Source: a virus (taxonomy: Duplodnaviria > Heunggongvirae > Uroviricota > Caudoviricetes). Taken from it: DNA of 10,132 nt. The notes beneath the pieces were generated by a model, which worked only from the letters and a program-made list of their open reading frames with translations, did no database searches and was not told the DNA's origin. Where the stretch lies: the IMG/VR virus record IMGVR_UViG_2630968500_000005; one strand, given 5' to 3'. The translations under genes were made by a program, and so were the position numbers. Shown piece by piece: positions 1-10,098 of this stretch; position 1 is the first letter of the stretch; each line of letters begins with the position of its first letter.

Positions 1-536
1 GAGGCGGTGCAATTTGCGCTATCGCGGTGATGATTACCATCGTGATGGGTAATGGCAATGTGCGAACCAACCAGGCGGGGCTTGAGCTTATCGGAAGCGC
101 TGAAGGTTGCCGACGTGATCCATACATGTGCCCGGCAGGGGTATGGACTGACGGGATCGGTAATACACACGGGGTAACGCCGGGTGTGCGAAAAACAGAC
201 CAGCAAATCGCCGCTGATTGGGAAAAGAATATCCTGATCGCTGAACGCTGTATTAACCAGCACTTCCGGGGCAAAGACATGCCCGATAATGCCTTCAGTG
301 CAATGACAAGCGCGGTATTCAATATGGGATGCAATAGCTTACGGACCTACTACAGCAAAGCGCGAGGCATGCGAGTAGAAACGTCCATCCACAAGTGGGC
401 GCAGAAAGGGGAATGGGTGAATATGTGTAACCATCTCCCTGATTTCGTGAACAGTAACGGCGTGCCCCTGCGAGGCTTAAAGATTCGCCGTGAAAAAGAA
501 CGCCAGCTTTGCCTGACGGGACTGGTCAATGAATAA
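1..536 (+). CDS. lyz: SAR endolysin (P1 Lyz-type lysozyme), 5'-partial; true start about 20 nt upstream of the window
   Basis: The frame is open from nt 3 and reads GGAICAIAVMITIVMGNGNVRTNQAGLELIGSAEGCRRDPYMCPAGVWTDGIGNTHG..., a Gly/Ala-rich weakly hydrophobic N-terminus (SAR domain) followed by a T4-lysozyme-like E-x8-C/D...T-D-G-I-G motif. Cys codons sit at 15-17, 108-110 and 129-131 and a Glu codon at 102-104, the spacing recalled for P1 Lyz Cys13/Glu42/Cys44/Cys51. Stop TAA at 534-536. The GTG at 27 used by the ORF track is an internal Val codon, not the start. Confidence 0.9.
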   Translation, partial: GGAICAIAVMITIVMGNGNVRTNQAGLELIGSAEGCRRDPYMCPAGVWTDGIGNTHGVTPGVRKTDQQIAADWEKNILIAERCINQHFRGKDMPDNAFSAMTSAVFNMGCNSLRTYYSKARGMRVETSIHKWAQKGEWVNMCNHLPDFVNSNGVPLRGLKIRREKERQLCLTGLVNE

Positions 537-783
537 ACTCCGGCAGCTCCGCCGACTTTCGACAATGAAGTTATCGCTGGCGGCGATAGTTTTCGACTCG
601 ATTTTCATGGCGGTATATGTGCTCAATGAGTCGTGGCCACTGGAACCGCTATTATATGCCGGGCTTCGGCTGTGCCTGACATTTTTGAGCATGGCTGCAA
701 GATTGATGCAGCAGAAAGAAACCGCTTCAGATTGTCCACGCCGCGCGGTGCGCAAATATATGGCACGCAGGCGAAAGCGATAA
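529..783 (+). CDS. hypothetical small membrane protein (84 aa, two predicted TM segments, strongly basic C-terminal tail); holin/pinholin-like topology, function unproven
   Basis: ATG at 529 overlaps the lyz stop (ATGAATAA), suggesting translational coupling. Hydrophobic stretches LSLAAIVFDSIFMAVYVL (about nt 574-628) and LLYAGLRLCLTFLSMAARLM (about nt 649-708), then tail RRAVRKYMARRRKR. Stop TAA at 781-783 sits 14 nt before an intrinsic terminator. Several rare Arg codons and no clear SD keep confidence low. Confidence 0.4.
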   Translation: MNKLRQLRRLSTMKLSLAAIVFDSIFMAVYVLNESWPLEPLLYAGLRLCLTFLSMAARLMQQKETASDCPRRAVRKYMARRRKR

Positions 784-796
784 TAGTTAACGATAC

Positions 797-822
797 CCCC
801 GGCAGCCGCCGGGGTTATTTTT
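797..822 (+). terminator. rho-independent terminator between convergent lysis and head genes
   Basis: Perfect 7-bp GC stem CCCCGGC (797-803) / GCCGGGG (808-814) with 4-nt loop AGCC, followed immediately by TTATTTTT (815-822). It lies 14 nt after the 529..783 stop and just past the pro stop (828-830) on the other strand, so it may act in both directions, with a weaker U-tract on the minus strand. Confidence 0.65.
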
Positions 823-827
823 GGTGG

Positions 828-3624
<2,797 letters not shown>

Positions 3625-6600
3625 ATGAACAAGCTATCTATGGGGGTGTTTCGCTGTTCAAGTGTCAGCGAAATATTGAAATACATTAGGGCAATAACAT
3701 CTCACCGAGCGCCGATTAGATACGGCGTGGAAAAGGTGGAAGGCAAAAGCTATGACCGACTACGCCGGGAGGCGAATCAGAAGGCGATAGATTTGCTTAA
3801 TTCGCTGGTGGACGGCGCGACACTGACAGATGAACAGCGCCAGATCCTGGCTGGGTACACCGGTGAAGGCGGCATTGGCGGGTCCGTCTCCGAATATTAC
3901 ACACCAAAGCCGATCGCTGAAGGTGTCTGGGAGATCATGAAGCTCTACGGCGCGGACGTAGGTAACACTCTGGAACCATCGGCGGGAACCGGCGTTTTTA
4001 ATGAGACAAAACCGGTTGGTACGGTGATGACCGCGACTGAGATCAGCAGTGTTTCCGGTCGTATAAACCAGTTGTTACACCCGGAAGACAGCGTACAGAT
4101 TTCCCCGTTCGAACAGCTGGCTATAAGCACGCCTAACGATTCATTCGACCATGTTGTGGGTAACGTTCCGTTCGGCGGTCGTGATAACACACGCAACATC
4201 GATAAGCCTTACGCAGAAGAAACGGACATGGGTTCTTACTTCATGCTCCGCATGCTGGACAAGATAAAGCCAGGCGGATTCATGTGCGTGATTGTGCCGC
4301 CGTCCATTGTTTCAGGTTCAAACATGAAGCGGTTACGCCTGCGCCTATCACGGAAAGCTGAATTTCTTGGTGCCCACCGCTTGCCTACCGGTACTTTTGA
4401 CGCAAACGGGACCAGTACGGTCGTTGACGTGGTGCTGATGCGCAAACATCCGGCGGAGATGGCTGAGAAAATCCCCCTGGTGGATGAAGGCACTCTTGAA
4501 TCGGCAAATGTGCTTTGGCCAACGTTTATTTCTGGCAAGTGGTTTGAAAAGGATGGCCGCCGGTTTGTTCATGGCACTCAGGAGAAGGGATTCCAGGGGC
4601 GTATTGAGGTTCGTGCCGACGGTCAGATTGATAACCAGGCTCTTAAAGCGAAGCTGATTCATCGTTTCGAAAGCCGTATCGACTGGTCTTTGCTCGATAT
4701 GGCTGAACCGTCACCGACCGCAGACGTTGTTGGTGAAGGGGAAATGCGCCTGATTAATGGTGTATGGCAAAAATATGCTGGTGGTCGCTGGATTGAAGCT
4801 GATGCCGGGAAGGAACTTAAGATCGATGCTGCCAGTTATGGCGCGGATAGCTGGGAGGCTCTTCAGCGTAACCTGACTACAACAGAAGGCCGTCTCGGCA
4901 TGACATTTACCCAGATGGCAAATGTCCGCGATAAGTACACCACATCAATCAGCGACGATATGGTGCAGCTGGTGGACTGGATTAACAGCCAGCCTGAAAA
5001 ATACCGTGAACGCTTGTATCGTGGGGCGATGATTGGCCGGATGTTAATTGAATATCAGGATATGAAGGCCGCCGGGCATAGTGCTGAACAAATCGAACAG
5101 CAGCGCCTTTCTCTGGTATCCCGTTTGCAGGCAGAGATTGACCGTTTTGGTAACCCCGGTCGCGGTCCGATAGCGAAATTATCGGGGAGCGGTGCGCGCG
5201 CCTGGTTTGCTTTCCGTGGTGCAATTAAGCTGGATGGCACTATTTCTGACGAGCTGACAGGAAAACTGGTTACGCATGATTCCAGCGCCAGTTATGACTC
5301 CACCAGCTATCAGGACACCCTGCGTTATCTCTACAGTGATCTCACTCGCGATCCAATCCAGCTCGATGATTTCCGCCTTGCGTTTACCGGCGAACTGCCA
5401 GCCAGTGATGACGAGTTGCTTAATTTATTGGCCAGCACCCCTGGTATTGCGGTTTCACCGTATGGCGGGATTGTTCCGTTCGCCCGCGCCACCAGCGGCG
5501 ACATTAACGAGATAGTAGCTCCAAAACAGGAATTCCTTGCCACACTCCCCGACGGTCCAGTAAAGAACAACGTCCTTAATCAGCTGGCAGCGATCGAAGA
5601 GAAGCGCATCAAGACGCCAGCAGAGAATATCCGGTTTAAGCTCAATAGCCGTTGGTTCGACCGTTCCGTCATTCTGGAATTTTTGCAGGAAAACGGCTAT
5701 CCGGATCTGCGCTATGTGCAGTCAGTGCAGCTGGAAGGCGACGAAATGGTTTCTGACACCTATCACGGTGGTGATGGTCTGTTCGTCGGGCACCGATACG
5801 GTGTCGTCCAGCGCAAGGATAAAGAAACAGGCGAGATCCGCTACGAGTGGGACCGTAAATCAGGTGAAAACGCGACCGGGTTCCCGGCACAACTGGAAAA
5901 GTATCTCAATGGTGCACGTATTGGTGGCAAAGATAGCGCGACGGCGAACGGCTACCGCGAGCAGATGGCACTGCTTGAGGACCAGTTCAATAAGTGGATC
6001 AAGACGCACGATCGCTACGATGAGCTGGTTGCCAAATACAACGATGTTTTCAATAGCAATATTCCGTATGAACATTCTGGCGATCCGCTTGGGTTGAAGG
6101 GATTAAGCGGTAAGCGCCAGCCATTTGATTACCAGAATAGCGAGGTGCGCCGACTGTCCGAAGATGGGCGCGGCATCCTGGGCTTCGGCACCGGGCTGGG
6201 TAAAACCACGACCGCGCTGGCGCTTGAGGCGTTCAACTATGAGAACGGTCGCTCCACCCGTACTGCGTATGTAGTGCCTAAATCAGTGCTGGAAAACTGG
6301 TATTACGAAGCAAAAGAATTCCTGAGTGAAGAGGCATTCAGTAACTACCTGTTCGTCGGTCTTGATGTGCTGATGGATGGCGATCAGATTCGCCAGGTGC
6401 CGGTGCTCGATGAGAACGGTAAACCTGTTCTTGGTACTGATGGCACTCCAGTTATGCGCGATGCCCTTAAACTGGCAGATGAAGCCACTATCACGGCGCG
6501 TATGAACGCGATCCCGCACTCAAATTACCGTGCAGTCGTGTTTACCAAAGAACAATACGCCCGCATTCCGCTACGTGATGACACCGTAGATGAGCATGCA

Positions 6601-9600
6601 CAGGATATGCTTTATGACTTCGTTGCTGCCGGGCGCGTAGCCAGCGCAATGAACTCCGACTCCCACCGCAAAGAGGCCGCGCGTCGCCGGGTATTGTCGG
6701 AGTATTCAGATACCGGTACCGAAAAAGCAGAGAAGTATCCGTACTTTGAGGATATGGGCTTCGACAGCGTGATTGCTGACGAAGGCCACAACTACCGCAA
6801 TAGCTATAAAAATGGTCGCGAAGCGTCACAGCTGGCCTATCTGCCCACCAGCGCGGTGGCGCAATCGGCGCGAGATATGGCAATCAAAAACGCGTACCTG
6901 ATGAAAAAGAATGGCGGGCGCGGGCCGGTTCTCCTGACTGCAACGCCAGTCGTTAACACTCCGATCGATGCATACAACATGCTTTCTCATGTTCTGCCGA
7001 AGGAATACTGGCAGAAGATGGGGATCTACGGTCCTGATGACTTCGTTAAATTCTTCGGCAAGACCAGGCTGGAAACGGTACAGAAAATCAGCGGTGAAGT
7101 TGAAGAAAAAATGGCGCTGGTGGGCTTTGAAAACCTTGATGCGCTGCGCGGCATATTCCATCGCTGGACAACGCTTAAAACGGCGGAAGACGTTAAGGAT
7201 ACCGTGGAGATCCCGGAGCTGGACGAACACCAGCAGGATGCACCACTTACTGAAGAACAACTGGCGGCGTATGAAGAATTACGCCAGCAGGCGGAAGCGG
7301 CGGCCAAAGCCAACAATGGCGTAACGACCTCGGTCGATGAAGACGGAGTGATTGAGCACGAGAAAGCCCGTCCGATCTTCTCAATAATCAGGGATATGGA
7401 CCGCGTATGTACTGACATGGACCTGTACTATCGCCGGATCACCTATCGTTTCCTGCCGGAGTACGCCGATGCAGTGCAGCAACTGGCGGACAGTTTGCCT
7501 AAACAAGCCACCAGCGAAGACGACGACAGTGATGATTCAATCACGCAGCAATCGCAATACTCCCTGATAGATAAGGGCGAGTTTATTCAGTTGCAGGTTC
7601 CGGAAGCGTTTGAGCAGGAAGTGAATAAGCGCCTGGCCAGGTTTGGCATTGACGAACAGACCGTAACTCACCCCGTTACACCCAAATACGCGAAGCTGAT
7701 CGCCACGCTGAAGGAGTTTTTCCCGGAAGGTAAGCAAATCATCTTCACGGACGAAAAAACGCAGCACCAGAAGCTCAAGCGCATTATCTGCAATGCTCTT
7801 AACCTTGAACCTTCAAAGGTGGGGATCCTGAATGCTCAGACGGTTGCCGAGGCAGGTAAAACCGGTAAGAAACTGAAAGCGGTTAAACCGCCGAAAGAGT
7901 TACCGGATGAACCAACAGATGCACAGATAGCGAAATACAACGAGCAAATGGCTCTGTATGACGCCTATATCGCGCAGCAAAATGAAATGTCGTTGGGCGG
8001 TCTGGAAAAGATTGCAGCCGACTTCCAGGAGGGCCGGACTCCGATCATCATCTGCAACAAAAAGGCAGAGGTGGGTATCAACCTGCATCGAGGAACGACG
8101 GATATCCACCACCTGACGTTGCCGTGGACTCCAGCCAGTATCGCACAACGTAACGGTCGCGGTGCCCGAGTTGGCTCCAACCGTGCAAGCGTTCGCGTTC
8201 ATTACTACTGCGGCAAGGGGTCTTTCGATGAATACCGACTGAAGACGCTGAAGCGTAAAGCAGGCTGGATCTCCGATATCCTCCGTTCAGATAAGTCAGA
8301 AATGGAGAACGCCGATGCCAACGATATGATCGAAATGCAGATGTATACCGCTAAGGATGATGGCGAACGTCTGGCAATGATGCAGGTTCAAATGGATAAG
8401 GCGAAAGCCGCGCAACGCGCTCGCCAGAAAGAACAGGCTACTATCGACCTTCAGAACTACATCAAGGCGCAGCACGCAGCTGGCGAGGATGTGGAGGTAC
8501 TTACCGCTGAATTAGAGCGAAACAAAGCGGAACTTGAAAAGACCACCGCCGAGGTAGCTAAATTCAAACAGGCGGCAATGGCCAAAGCAGCTGATAACGC
8601 AGACTGGAAGACCCGCTGGGGTAGCGTCCATCACACAGACCGTACGTTGTTAGCACAGTATCGCGCGTCGTTGAAAAGCGCCATTCAGCGCAAGGCTAAT
8701 ATCTCTCAAGCCATCTCCCGCTATGAGAAATTATTGAACCGTACTCAGAAGGCCGCGACGGATATCAAACGCCTGCGCCCGCTGGTGGAGGATGCAATAA
8801 ATAAAGGCATTCTGGATGTTGATCCTGATCTGGTTAACCATGCGAGTGAGTTCCTTGTTATCGGCGATCGCTCATGGCGTGTAGGCCAATACTACGATTG
8901 TGCCGGTGATATCGTTCGCATTAAGTCGCTGGACTTCGACAGCCAGCGCGCAGACGTGGAGATCATCTTTACCTTCAAAGGCACCAAATCGGGTAACTGG
9001 GATGTGAAGACGCTGGATAAACAGGTAGATGTGACTCCCGATGAAGATGCTGTTATGCAGAAAATCAGTGGTGGCGTCTCCATCGCCGGGATTAACGGCA
9101 TCATTTCCTGTGACGATTTCTACCGTTTCCAGCAGCGCGGCATGATCAAAATCACTGACTCATACGGCGTTCAGACTACAGAGTCAGGCTATAGCATTGA
9201 TTTTGTTGGTACCTATACGGACCCACTGAAGCATGCGGTTTACCCGGATCGCCGTGACGGCGCGCTGAAGTCGTCAATTGCTAAATGGGTGCTTGGTATG
9301 ATGTCGGAAGGGAATAACCGCCAGGTCCGTTTGGCAGAAGTATTCCTGACTGAACTGTTTGGCTCCAATTATAGCGATGTAATCGCGTCATACGGAGATA
9401 CGTTATCCCCTGAAGCAATTCAGGAGAAAATAGCGGATGCGATCGCCAGAATGCCGGAGAAAACAAGCCAGGGGGCTACTCGTAACGGGGATTCTGAACT
9501 TGAGATCACCAATGCCATTTTCGGTACCAATGAGTTCCGGGCGTCAGATTTTGAGGTCACCACAGCACAGTTTGGCCCCATTGGCATTTACAGCAATAAA

Positions 9601-10098
9601 GACGAGATCAAGCAGGCAATGGACGCAGCAAGCGCGCGCATTGCAGCAGAACGGAAAGCCAATCTGAATCATGCAGTCGCCGCGCTGACTCAATCGTGGG
9701 TAACAGCAATCAGGGAGGCCGCCACCACAGGGAAAATCACACCGGCAATTGCGGATGTCGTAAACAACGGCTCTAAATTTATGGATGCCTATCAAATGGA
9801 TGCGGTGCAGTTGCCATCAGCCTATGGCCAACTCAGCTATCGCATGACCTACAACCTGGTATCAATGTTTATCATTGACGTCATGTTTCCGGGCCAGTGC
9901 GGCAATACTGCCTTCTTCTTCAAGAGCCAGCCTGACCAGTTCCATTTTGAATTCAGGGGAATAGTGTTTCCGGGGAAGTCTTTCTTTAGCGCGCATGAGG
10001 TGTCCACCTGCAAAATAAGTGGGTGCTTAAGTTACAGGATCCTGGATTCGGGACCAGACGGTACTCAGACGACGCTTACCTGTGTTGTTCTAAGGTGA
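3625..10098 (+). CDS. darB: DarB-like antirestriction protein: N-terminal N6-adenine DNA methyltransferase-like domain plus SF2 helicase core; 3' end appears IS-disrupted (native coding probably ends near 9870)
   Basis: ATG at 3625 with SD AAGGA 6 nt upstream. MTase motifs: TPKP (3901-3912), motif I LEPSAGTGVF (3970-3999), motif IV-like NVPF (4162-4173). Helicase motifs: Walker A GLGKTT (6196-6213), DEGH (6778-6789), TATP (6937-6948), motif VI QRNGRGAR (8146-8169). Acidic cluster SEDDDSDDS (about 7513-7539) and a coiled-coil region (about 8370-8620). A giant MTase-helicase fusion next to prt/pro/lyz matches P1 DarB. The last ~75 codons (about 9874-10098) are the antisense of an IS3-family OrfA fragment and are unlikely to be native. 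Confidence 0.85.
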   Translation: MNKLSMGVFRCSSVSEILKYIRAITSHRAPIRYGVEKVEGKSYDRLRREANQKAIDLLNSLVDGATLTDEQRQILAGYTGEGGIGGSVSEYYTPKPIAEGVWEIMKLYGADVGNTLEPSAGTGVFNETKPVGTVMTATEISSVSGRINQLLHPEDSVQISPFEQLAISTPNDSFDHVVGNVPFGGRDNTRNIDKPYAEETDMGSYFMLRMLDKIKPGGFMCVIVPPSIVSGSNMKRLRLRLSRKAEFLGAHRLPTGTFDANGTSTVVDVVLMRKHPAEMAEKIPLVDEGTLESANVLWPTFISGKWFEKDGRRFVHGTQEKGFQGRIEVRADGQIDNQALKAKLIHRFESRIDWSLLDMAEPSPTADVVGEGEMRLINGVWQKYAGGRWIEADAGKELKIDAASYGADSWEALQRNLTTTEGRLGMTFTQMANVRDKYTTSISDDMVQLVDWINSQPEKYRERLYRGAMIGRMLIEYQDMKAAGHSAEQIEQQRLSLVSRLQAEIDRFGNPGRGPIAKLSGSGARAWFAFRGAIKLDGTISDELTGKLVTHDSSASYDSTSYQDTLRYLYSDLTRDPIQLDDFRLAFTGELPASDDELLNLLASTPGIAVSPYGGIVPFARATSGDINEIVAPKQEFLATLPDGPVKNNVLNQLAAIEEKRIKTPAENIRFKLNSRWFDRSVILEFLQENGYPDLRYVQSVQLEGDEMVSDTYHGGDGLFVGHRYGVVQRKDKETGEIRYEWDRKSGENATGFPAQLEKYLNGARIGGKDSATANGYREQMALLEDQFNKWIKTHDRYDELVAKYNDVFNSNIPYEHSGDPLGLKGLSGKRQPFDYQNSEVRRLSEDGRGILGFGTGLGKTTTALALEAFNYENGRSTRTAYVVPKSVLENWYYEAKEFLSEEAFSNYLFVGLDVLMDGDQIRQVPVLDENGKPVLGTDGTPVMRDALKLADEATITARMNAIPHSNYRAVVFTKEQYARIPLRDDTVDEHAQDMLYDFVAAGRVASAMNSDSHRKEAARRRVLSEYSDTGTEKAEKYPYFEDMGFDSVIADEGHNYRNSYKNGREASQLAYLPTSAVAQSARDMAIKNAYLMKKNGGRGPVLLTATPVVNTPIDAYNMLSHVLPKEYWQKMGIYGPDDFVKFFGKTRLETVQKISGEVEEKMALVGFENLDALRGIFHRWTTLKTAEDVKDTVEIPELDEHQQDAPLTEEQLAAYEELRQQAEAAAKANNGVTTSVDEDGVIEHEKARPIFSIIRDMDRVCTDMDLYYRRITYRFLPEYADAVQQLADSLPKQATSEDDDSDDSITQQSQYSLIDKGEFIQLQVPEAFEQEVNKRLARFGIDEQTVTHPVTPKYAKLIATLKEFFPEGKQIIFTDEKTQHQKLKRIICNALNLEPSKVGILNAQTVAEAGKTGKKLKAVKPPKELPDEPTDAQIAKYNEQMALYDAYIAQQNEMSLGGLEKIAADFQEGRTPIIICNKKAEVGINLHRGTTDIHHLTLPWTPASIAQRNGRGARVGSNRASVRVHYYCGKGSFDEYRLKTLKRKAGWISDILRSDKSEMENADANDMIEMQMYTAKDDGERLAMMQVQMDKAKAAQRARQKEQATIDLQNYIKAQHAAGEDVEVLTAELERNKAELEKTTAEVAKFKQAAMAKAADNADWKTRWGSVHHTDRTLLAQYRASLKSAIQRKANISQAISRYEKLLNRTQKAATDIKRLRPLVEDAINKGILDVDPDLVNHASEFLVIGDRSWRVGQYYDCAGDIVRIKSLDFDSQRADVEIIFTFKGTKSGNWDVKTLDKQVDVTPDEDAVMQKISGGVSIAGINGIISCDDFYRFQQRGMIKITDSYGVQTTESGYSIDFVGTYTDPLKHAVYPDRRDGALKSSIAKWVLGMMSEGNNRQVRLAEVFLTELFGSNYSDVIASYGDTLSPEAIQEKIADAIARMPEKTSQGATRNGDSELEITNAIFGTNEFRASDFEVTTAQFGPIGIYSNKDEIKQAMDAASARIAAERKANLNHAVAALTQSWVTAIREAATTGKITPAIADVVNNGSKFMDAYQMDAVQLPSAYGQLSYRMTYNLVSMFIIDVMFPGQCGNTAFFFKSQPDQFHFEFRGIVFPGKSFFSAHEVSTCKISGCLSYRILDSGPDGTQTTLTCVVLR
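9862..9996 (-). pseudogene. truncated IS3-family transposase OrfA (N-terminal HTH fragment, 44 codons)
   Basis: Direct translation of the reverse complement of 9862-9996 gives 44 residues with the IS3-family OrfA HTH signature, then a premature stop where homology to darB resumes. Too short to be functional. Confidence 0.45.

Follow-up and report, generated by a model that had tools for sequence, protein, structure and literature searches.

The darB locus and the architecture of its product

The window, by which we mean the whole stretch of 10,132 nucleotides that was analysed, carries lyz, pro, prt and darB in the same gene order as phage P1, P7 and their relatives (98% identity over 9870 nt), and its positions 1-9870 share 98.2% DNA identity with the P1 genome (NC_005856). 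Its large-scale features around darB are the following:

3625-10098, plus strand: darB open reading frame of 2157 codons, with residues 1-2082 corresponding to P1 DarB and the last ~75 codons representing read-through into foreign DNA
6121-8175, plus strand: SNF2-type helicase/translocase module (aa ~833-1517), fused to the methylase
9871-10086, minus strand: fragment of an IS66-family element, standing in place of the 3' end of darB, with ~173 terminal codons of the P1 gene missing

A first-pass annotation of this DNA had described the product as DarB-like; the homology identifies it as the phage P1 anti-restriction protein DarB itself, a 2255-residue protein packaged in the virions of P1 and P7 (YP_006479.1), and a match to phrog_1685 spans residues 1-2082 of the reading frame. 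Over residues 1-2080 the window protein and P1 DarB differ at 28 amino acids and 96 synonymous codons, with only three of the 28 replacements falling in the methylase domain. P1 DarB travels inside the phage capsid and shields DNA in cis against EcoK and EcoB (PMC9024508, PMC12810830). The window itself contains no EcoKI site where 1.5 would be expected, a difference that is not significant and is not counted as evidence.

The N-terminal part of the protein matches the Pfam families N6_Mtase (PF02384, E 4.6e-8) and Eco57I (PF07669, E 1.7e-7), both above the gathering score; the domain is genuine rather than a fortuitous match. C-terminal of the N6_Mtase match, residues 833-1517 match SNF2-rel_dom (E 1.4e-10), ResIII (1.1e-5) and Helicase_C (3.2e-6) as well as phrog_62 (DNA helicase), and the protein is thus a methylase-SNF2 fusion.

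The window copy lacks the complete 2255-residue reading frame. Homology to P1 ends at position 9870, the protein departs from P1 DarB at about residues 2077-2082, and an unrelated tail of ~75 residues follows the cut made by the IS66-family fragment. More than 2600 plasmid records match the segment 9869-10086 at 95-100% identity, and in one of them the match covers part of the first transposase gene of an IS66-family element and the DNA just upstream of that gene. The record in which the window darB resides is plasmid-like, from E. coli and 148 kb long (E. coli G5 plasmid NZ_CP060066.1), rather than a clean P1 genome; the IS66-family fragment matches this plasmid at 100%, with an IS3 coming next in it. 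Lacking the C-terminal ~173 residues, this copy of DarB may be non-functional as a whole.

The methylase domain and its motif IV

The motifs of the methylase domain were placed by alignment to type I modification subunits, by conservation among family members and by an AlphaFold model (pLDDT 85.5 overall and 96 over the beta-4 block):

3895-3912, plus strand: YYTPKP (aa 91-96), whose 'TP' caps the helix that precedes the methylase core, aligning to YFTPRP of the EcoKI and StySJI M subunits
3970-3999, plus strand: LEPSAGTGVF (aa 116-125), motif I, the SAM-binding loop after beta-1, aligning to DPAAGTAGF of EcoKI M
4039-4041, plus strand: Glu139, acid closing beta-2 (E73-78 in the model), motif II position
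4108-4113, plus strand: Phe162-Glu163, motif III position after beta-3, placed by conservation in representatives
4162-4173, plus strand: NVPF (aa 180-183), motif IV, the catalytic loop directly after beta-4, placed by alignments and model
4381-4398, plus strand: LPTGTF (aa 253-258), motif VIII position, whose aromatic residue is conserved; in EcoKI and StySJI M it is aligned with RLPTGIF

Position 3895, where the stretch singled out by the first-pass annotation starts, coincides with the first base of YYTPKP, the TP motif having been described as contacting the motif IV asparagine (PMC5512222). Its reading of motif I as canonical is likewise upheld, as LEPSAGTGVF conforms to the (D/E)PxxGxGxF pattern and comes after strand E53-57 in the numbering of the model. 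By analogy with the gamma-class fold, Glu139 would be a ligand of the SAM ribose, and the aromatic residue of LPTGTF is predicted to stack on the flipped adenine.

The same annotation had placed the catalytic tetrapeptide about 60 residues downstream of motif I, within HVVGNVPFGG (aa 176-185, nt 4150-4179), and Asn180 indeed lies 64 residues past Leu116. Searches against PDB with phmmer and with profiles set NVPF column for column on NPPF of EcoKI HsdM and StySJI M and on NPPY of EcoR124 M. In the AlphaFold model beta-4 comprises residues 114-120 of the model's own numbering and stops exactly at the motif IV asparagine. The model has a class I Rossmann-like fold of alternating beta-strands and alpha-helices with motif I preceding motif IV, which is the gamma order, and its top Foldseek matches are type I M subunits, M.BseCI, CamA and M.TaqI (E 1e-8 to 1e-11), with PacII and BsaXI also among the best. 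Together, the alignments and the model identify nt 4162-4173 as the genuine motif IV of a predicted gamma-class (EcoKI HsdM/TaqI-like) N6-adenine DNA methyltransferase domain. As had been pointed out, the tetrapeptide departs from the textbook (D/N/S)PP(Y/F/W) at position 2, where it has valine; it agrees at positions 1, 3 and 4, and under the relaxed form N-x-P-(F/Y) the whole tetrapeptide conforms.

That the true motif IV lies elsewhere, or that NVPF is a sequencing or assembly artefact of the window, was tested and rejected, and we regard either as having almost no chance of being correct. A second look-alike, NIPY, exists at residues 812-815, and apart from this the idea is an a priori possibility only. 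NIPY lies outside the methylase Rossmann fold, its asparagine is not conserved in homologues, and it was discarded as an alternative. A regular-expression scan of all 2157 residues returned no (D/N/S)PP(Y/F/W/H), and three independent alignments as well as the model set NVPF at the motif IV position. As for an artefact, the NVPF codons are identical in the reference P1 DarB (YP_006479.1).

Conservation of the motif across the DarB family

The conservation of the domain was assessed in an alignment of 152 stretches from 150 family representatives (50%-identity clusters; 39-99% identity), these being the representatives listed among ~7900 matches of a representative search. This search supplied the full-length family, whereas another homologue search gave only partial proteins of less than 470 aa. 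Among the matches listed, motif IV reads NVPF in 128 stretches, NIPF in 12, NLPF in one, NAPF in two, NPP[FY] in six and SVP[FI] in three. The first-pass annotation had regarded the substitution at position 2 as unusual; in this clade it is the consensus, with valine, isoleucine or leucine present in 141 of the 152 stretches (V 86%, I/L 9%, P 4% and A 1% at position 181, among the matches listed). The flanking positions of the motif are nearly invariant in the same set, namely N180 (98%), P182 (100%) and F183 (98%).

The rest of the putative active site is comparably conserved among the matches listed, at 85-99% for the remaining SAM-pocket and adenine-pocket positions and at 85-100% for the TP motif together with motifs I, II, III and VIII. 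In the 152 listed stretches T93 and P94 of the TP motif are retained in 98% and 95% (95-98% across the pair), and P118, G121, G123 and F125 of motif I in 95-99%. Position 139 is always acidic among the listed representatives (E in 125 and D in 22 of 147). For motif III, F162 is found in 142 and E163 in 146 of the 147 (F162, E163 and D175 at 97-99%), and for motif VIII, P254 in 145 and F258 in 146 (F258 at 96-99%). The TP-capped N-terminal helix and the LPxGxF aromatic, which can be aligned to EcoKI and StySJI M, are 95-99% conserved.

Members with NPP(F/Y) occur in at least three separate subgroups among the matches listed, where they have NVPF neighbours and the same MTase-SNF2 architecture. 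A similar mixture is seen in distant phage DarB-like proteins recovered by tblastn against phage records, which have NVPF (D6, a Streptococcus phage), NIPF (Listeria) or NAPF (PHB04) on the one hand, and NPPY (LE1) or NPPF (Bcep22, LASTA, PBC5, Atu_ph08 and Pavtok) on the other. Valine and proline at position 2 are freely interchangeable within the DarB family.

On the whole, comparison of the family sequences indicates that NVPF is the clade-typical, strongly conserved motif IV of the DarB clade and not a degenerate one, and that in hundreds of diverged giant MTase-helicase proteins purifying selection acts strongly on the active site. Conservation of this kind demonstrates selection for the binding of SAM and of the base, and turnover is not strictly implied by it.

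Probable catalytic competence and alternative explanations

The form of motif IV seen in DarB has clear functional precedents. Active N6-adenine methylases of the Erm/KsgA type follow the pattern (A/S/N)(L/I/V)P(Y/F) in their motif IV; among them PikR1 and PikR2 have exactly NVPF, and ErmC' has NIPY as its catalytic core (PMC6787224). The catalytic core of DIMT1 is NLPY, and at position 2 of the motif it is the backbone carbonyl rather than the side chain that hydrogen-bonds the target amino group (PMC10915109). NLPY variants are also present among the REBASE gold-standard DNA MTases (bioRxiv 10.1101/2023.12.13.571470). [quoted passage not shown]

Because NVPF is conserved in the clade and known from active N6-adenine methylases, the domain is most likely catalytically competent, the more so as Asn180 and Phe183 are kept and valine would supply the position-2 carbonyl as well as proline does. 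We therefore favour, with a probability of roughly 70%, the reading that the domain is a competent SAM-dependent adenine-N6 methylase with a clade-typical NVPF, acting on motor-tracked DNA. According to this reading, which draws on sequence, model and analogy, the target amino group would be contacted at position 2 by the backbone carbonyl only, much as the flipped adenine is contacted by Pro106 in M.TaqI, making valine equivalent to proline. About 40 copies of DarB would be ejected from the capsid together with the genome, the fused SNF2 motor would track along the DNA with the methylase domain acting on it, and the genome would thereby be protected in cis from restriction of the EcoK/EcoB type. 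Both methyl transfer itself and its role as the cause of anti-restriction are presumed here.

The first-pass annotation had suggested altered or lost methyl transfer. A domain of the latter kind would bind SAM and flip or grip adenines without transferring a methyl group, and protection would come from occlusion or from the SNF2 motor stripping or blocking type I enzymes. Our literature search returned no report, and thus no published demonstration, of methylation carried out by DarB or another member of its clade. Reviews give the mechanism of Dar as undefined ('not defined'; PMC11109961) or as possible occlusion, a hypothesis that stems from its action in cis only, on packaged DNA (PMC12707154), and position 2 deviates from NPP(Y/F), the form reported for the family at large (PMC5512222). 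Against this, in known dead methylase paralogues neither the polar first residue nor the aromatic one survives, as in the EPPL of METTL14 (PMC10915109), while DarB keeps both along with every SAM-pocket position among the matches listed. The exact tetrapeptide works in PikR1 and PikR2, and valine and proline interchange in close relatives. Loss of activity consequently appears unlikely. Skutel et al. mention that darB on a plasmid still alleviated EcoKI when its predicted catalytic residues were mutated, but they showed that the plasmid DNA itself, through its Chi and EcoKI sites, caused this alleviation rather than the protein (PMC11109961), and the result is therefore uninformative either way.

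A changed rather than a lost reaction, in which a roomier pocket as in Erm/KsgA would yield N6,N6-dimethyladenine or a preference for unpaired substrates such as ssDNA or motor-distorted DNA, we hold to be highly improbable. A study of ErmE ties (A/S/N)(L/I/V)P(Y/F) to dimethylating and (N/D)PP(Y/F/W) to monomethylating N6 enzymes (PMC6787224), and the strong preference for valine in the P1 clade (among the matches listed) suggests that the position is not purely neutral. PikR1, however, is a monomethylase with NVPF, so that the motif does not dictate the outcome (PMC6787224), the fold and the best sequence matches are those of DNA type I M subunits with no RrnaAD/Erm match in Pfam at E<=0.1, and the NPP(F/Y) relatives with the same architecture argue for the same job. 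The proposal that the near-fixed aliphatic residue in the P1-DarB clade, a form of motif IV otherwise characteristic of Erm/KsgA dimethylases, reflects a distinct chemistry or substrate, for instance sequence-independent methylation of DNA transiently unpaired by the motor or N6,N6-dimethylation, is likewise highly improbable; were it true, DNA would be hidden from type I enzymes in a hitherto undescribed manner.

The question of how DarB overcomes type I restriction has stood for nearly 40 years. The NVPF motif does not decide between methylation, occlusion and motor activity. It provides no evidence for a dead methylase, and the methylation model stays fully alive. The protein is well known and the motif variant is documented, so the observation on its sequence opens no new question alone.

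Comparison with known systems

The gamma-class DNA MTases, such as HsdM of EcoKI, StySJI and EcoR124, M.TaqI, CamA and M.BseCI, share with DarB the fold and the order of motifs I to IV, and their TP-capped N-terminal helix, motif I and motif VIII LPxGxF can be aligned to those of DarB residue by residue. They have N-P-P-F/Y where DarB has N-V-P-F, the identity is just 15-22%, and DarB, in which the methylase is joined to an SNF2 motor, lacks both an S subunit and any obvious target-recognition domain.

The Erm/KsgA/Dim1 rRNA MTases, whose N6-adenine transfer has been demonstrated (PMC6787224, PMC10915109), have in common with DarB the N-(aliphatic)-P-(aromatic) form of motif IV and the class I Rossmann fold. 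They form a separate family (PF00398) with an RNA substrate, and most of them are dimethylases. As the likeness is in the motif only, they serve as a functional precedent that is silent on membership.

An architectural parallel is offered by the DarB-like MTase-SNF2 'polyvalent proteins' of Bcep22-, PBC5- and N4-like phages and conjugative elements, which have the same methylase-helicase dyad and enter with the invading DNA (PMC5512222, Iyer et al. 2017). Their methylase domain is homologous to that of DarB at 27-35% identity, although it mostly has the canonical NPPF, and HYTS where DarB has YYTP. At 4000-5000 aa these proteins are much larger than DarB and contain extra lytic or peptidase domains.

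The darB gene and its genomic setting

Nucleotides 1-9870 of the window share 98% identity with phages P1, P7, RCS47 and their relatives. Judged by sequence comparison, the window is a segment of a P1-like phage whose long ORF encodes an already known protein, P1 DarB. The relevant features are:

lyz, lydD, pro, prt, then darB, + strand: gene order as in P1, P7, RCS47 and relatives
3625-10098, + strand: darB, the long ORF for DarB itself
3970-3999, + strand (aa 116-125): motif I, LEPSAGTGVF
4150-4179, + strand (aa 176-185): HVVGNVPFGG
4162-4173, + strand (aa 180-183): NVPF
9869-10086, - strand: fragment of an IS66-family element, with matches in more than 2600 plasmid records

Across aa 1-2080 the protein shows 28 residue differences from reference P1 DarB (YP_006479.1, 2255 aa), alongside 96 synonymous codon differences, with only 3 amino-acid changes in the methylase domain. 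Pfam models of the N6_Mtase and Eco57I methylase families (aa 145-290) are followed by SNF2-rel_dom, ResIII and Helicase_C (aa 833-1517), and a full-length PHROGs match spans aa 1-2082, in addition to a match to the 'DarB-like antirestriction' family. The homology to P1 ends at nt 9870 (aa ~2082 of 2255), and the ORF continues for ~75 unrelated codons past the 9870/9871 junction. As the IS66-family fragment replaces the 3' end at this junction, this copy of darB is without ~173 C-terminal residues. The junction is 100% identical to the E. coli G5 plasmid NZ_CP060066.1 (148 kb), in which it is followed by IS3 and a mobI(A/C) gene; the source of the window is probably a rearranged P1-like phage-plasmid. 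An antisense ORF (3945-4199, - strand, 84 codons) overlapping the motif IV region is ORF-finder output alone, without evidence for a gene.

Identification of motif IV

The first-pass annotation had accurately reported LEPSAGTGVF and HVVGNVPFGG, in a region starting at nt 3895, the first base of YYTPKP, and had taken NVPF for motif IV. Four independent lines of evidence, drawn from sequence comparison and structure prediction, agree with this assignment. A phmmer comparison of aa 1-400 with PDB sequences pairs h-v-v-g-N-V-P-F-G with i-v-a-t-N-P-P-F-G of EcoKI HsdM. In a 19-homologue profile, the NVPF columns fall on NPPF of the StySJI and EcoKI M subunits and NPPY of EcoR124 M, with the TP motif, motif I and the LPTGxF motif VIII all in register. 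The TP motif caps the helix ahead of the EcoKI/TaqI-like methylase core (Iyer et al., PMC5512222). In the AlphaFold model of aa 61-330 (pLDDT 85.5, pTM 0.85; pLDDT 96 across the relevant block), a strand at model residues 114-120 stops exactly at the Asn of NVPF, and the top Foldseek matches are type I M subunits, M.BseCI, CamA, PacII, BsaXI and M.TaqI (E 1e-8 to 2e-11). Finally, a regular-expression search over the full 2157-residue protein found no (D/N/S)PP(Y/F/W/H).

The sole other look-alike in the protein is NIPY at aa 812-815 (window 6058-6069), situated beyond the methylase fold and immediately upstream of the SNF2 domain. Homologues have Y, F, D or R at its first position, and with the Asn not conserved we dismissed it as a second catalytic motif and regard it as a chance resemblance. 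A canonical motif at another place in the protein, which the first-pass annotation had named as grounds against its assignment, is therefore absent.

Variation of motif IV within the DarB family

Searching 1.84 billion cluster representatives with HMMER recovered 7874 matches, of which 300 were below 1e-30. The best 150 of these 7874, nearly all 2000-2600 aa long and mostly only 39-60% identical to the query, were aligned to it, and the motif IV columns were scored in 152 aligned stretches.

Motif IV in 152 aligned stretches from the best 150 of 7874 matches
NVPF: 128
NIPF: 12
NLPF: 1
NAPF: 2
NPPF/NPPY: 6
SVPF/SVPI: 3, all from one multi-domain protein

N(V/I/L)PF thus accounts for 93% of the stretches in the P1 clade. 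Among the same best 150 of 7874 matches, conservation is high in motif IV (N180 98%, P182 100%, F183 98%), the TP motif (T93 98%, P94 95%), motif I (P118, G121, G123 and F125, 95-99%), the motif III position and beta-4 (F162, E163 and D175, 97-99%) and motif VIII (F258, 96-99%), and position 139 of motif II is acidic in 147 of 147. This sequence pattern is that of an active site under purifying selection, not of one in decay. The 6 NPP(F/Y) representatives in this set are spread over at least 3 separate subgroups and have the same methylase-SNF2 architecture as NVPF members; one of them, P0171, is 66% identical to P0143, a DarB-family representative bearing NVPF.

Two family members have further domains or domain copies. 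P0171 (2438 aa, NPPF) contains LAGLIDADG/Hom_end and HINT/intein-splicing domains within its SNF2 region (aa ~866-1560), and by its domain content looks like an intein-interrupted DarB homologue. P0135 (2040 aa) has several tandem methylase-domain copies (2-119, 279-476, 692-861 and ~1089-1212), in which motif IV is SVPF/SVPI, and a ResIII/DEAD helicase after them, an unusual arrangement.

The motif does depart from the canonical form, as the first-pass annotation held, but it is not unusual, being the norm for the P1 clade and already described for other N6-adenine methylases that are active. The sole, small addition made here is quantitative: the published family description NPP(Y/F) (PMC5512222) fails for the P1 clade.

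Probable catalytic competence and proposed mechanism of DarB

The best-supported reading, to which we assign a probability of about 0.7, is that the N-terminal domain of DarB would be competent for SAM-dependent methylation of adenine N6 and be coupled to the SNF2 translocase. Altered or lost activity, earlier suggested from the Val at position 2, is not borne out by the prevalence of NVPF (128 of 152 stretches, best 150 of 7874) with a conserved pocket, by the interchange of Val and Pro among relatives, or by the presence of NVPF in active PikR1 and PikR2 (PMC6787224). Two groups hydrogen-bond the target N6 amino group, namely the first residue's side chain and the main-chain carbonyl between positions 2 and 3, with the aromatic residue stacked against the base (PMC10915109). 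Since at position 2 it is the backbone carbonyl that bonds the amino group, the change from Pro to Val removes no catalytic group. A domain that binds SAM and the base yet transfers no methyl group is unlikely; the dead paralogue METTL14 reads EPPL (PMC10915109). It is very improbable that the reaction has changed, for example to dimethylation or to unpaired substrates; NVPF in exactly this form is shared by the monomethylase PikR1 and the dimethylase PikR2 (PMC6787224).

A competent methylase accords with the methylase and translocase model proposed by Iyer et al. (PMC5512222). About 40-45 DarB copies are packaged per virion via an N-terminal capsid-targeting signal (PMC9024508, PMC12810830), and the methylase-SNF2 unit would act on the genome co-ejected with DarB. 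We infer both methyl transfer by DarB and its role as the basis of protection; the literature searched yielded no experimental account of methylation by DarB, and in recent papers the mechanism is either described as undefined or discussed in terms of occlusion (PMC11109961, PMC12707154). Skutel et al. remarked that plasmid-borne darB with catalytic-residue mutations still alleviated EcoKI restriction, and traced the alleviation to Chi sites and EcoKI sites carried on the plasmid (PMC11109961); because these sites rather than the protein caused the effect, the result is uninformative about DarB activity. P1 and darB are Chi-rich, and when carried on plasmids this DNA is by itself enough to alleviate EcoKI restriction (PMC11109961). 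The window fits this known property of P1 with a striking excess of Chi, 12 sequences (GCTGGTGG; 1413-8788, e.g. 3804-3811, 4777-4784, 4968-4975) against 0.29 expected from shuffles, 9 of the 12 within darB. The window has 0 EcoKI sites (AACN6GTGC) where 1.5 would be expected, a difference not statistically meaningful at 10 kb.

Comparison with known methylases and DarB-like proteins

Aliphatic residues at position 2 have several precedents. Erm-type N6-adenine methyltransferases have the motif IV consensus (A/S/N)(L/I/V)P(Y/F), according to the ErmE structure paper, with NIPY in ErmC' (PMC6787224); the core of human DIMT1 is NLPY (PMC10915109); and rare NLPY variants occur among otherwise NPPY class A enzymes of the REBASE gold-standard DNA methyltransferases (bioRxiv 10.1101/2023.12.13.571470). 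NVPF is thus a form of the motif known to work in other enzymes. The best PDB sequence match to the DarB methylase, the Vibrio vulnificus YJ016 type I methyltransferase crystallised with Ocr (7eew, chain 7eew_A), reads S-G-V-P-F-G at residues ~255-262, aligned to DarB aa 176-185; it shares the Val at position 2 but has Gly where DarB has the catalytic Asn. Among more distant phage proteins annotated as DarB-like, those of E. coli phage D6 and a Streptococcus phage have the NVPF of P1 DarB; NIPF is seen in a Listeria phage, NAPF in Bordetella phage PHB04, NPPY in Leptospira phage LE1, and NPPF in Bcep22, LASTA, PBC5, Atu_ph08 and Pavtok. Given these variants and the conservation elsewhere, Pro, Val, Ile and Ala replace one another at position 2 of motif IV, in a pocket that is otherwise constant.
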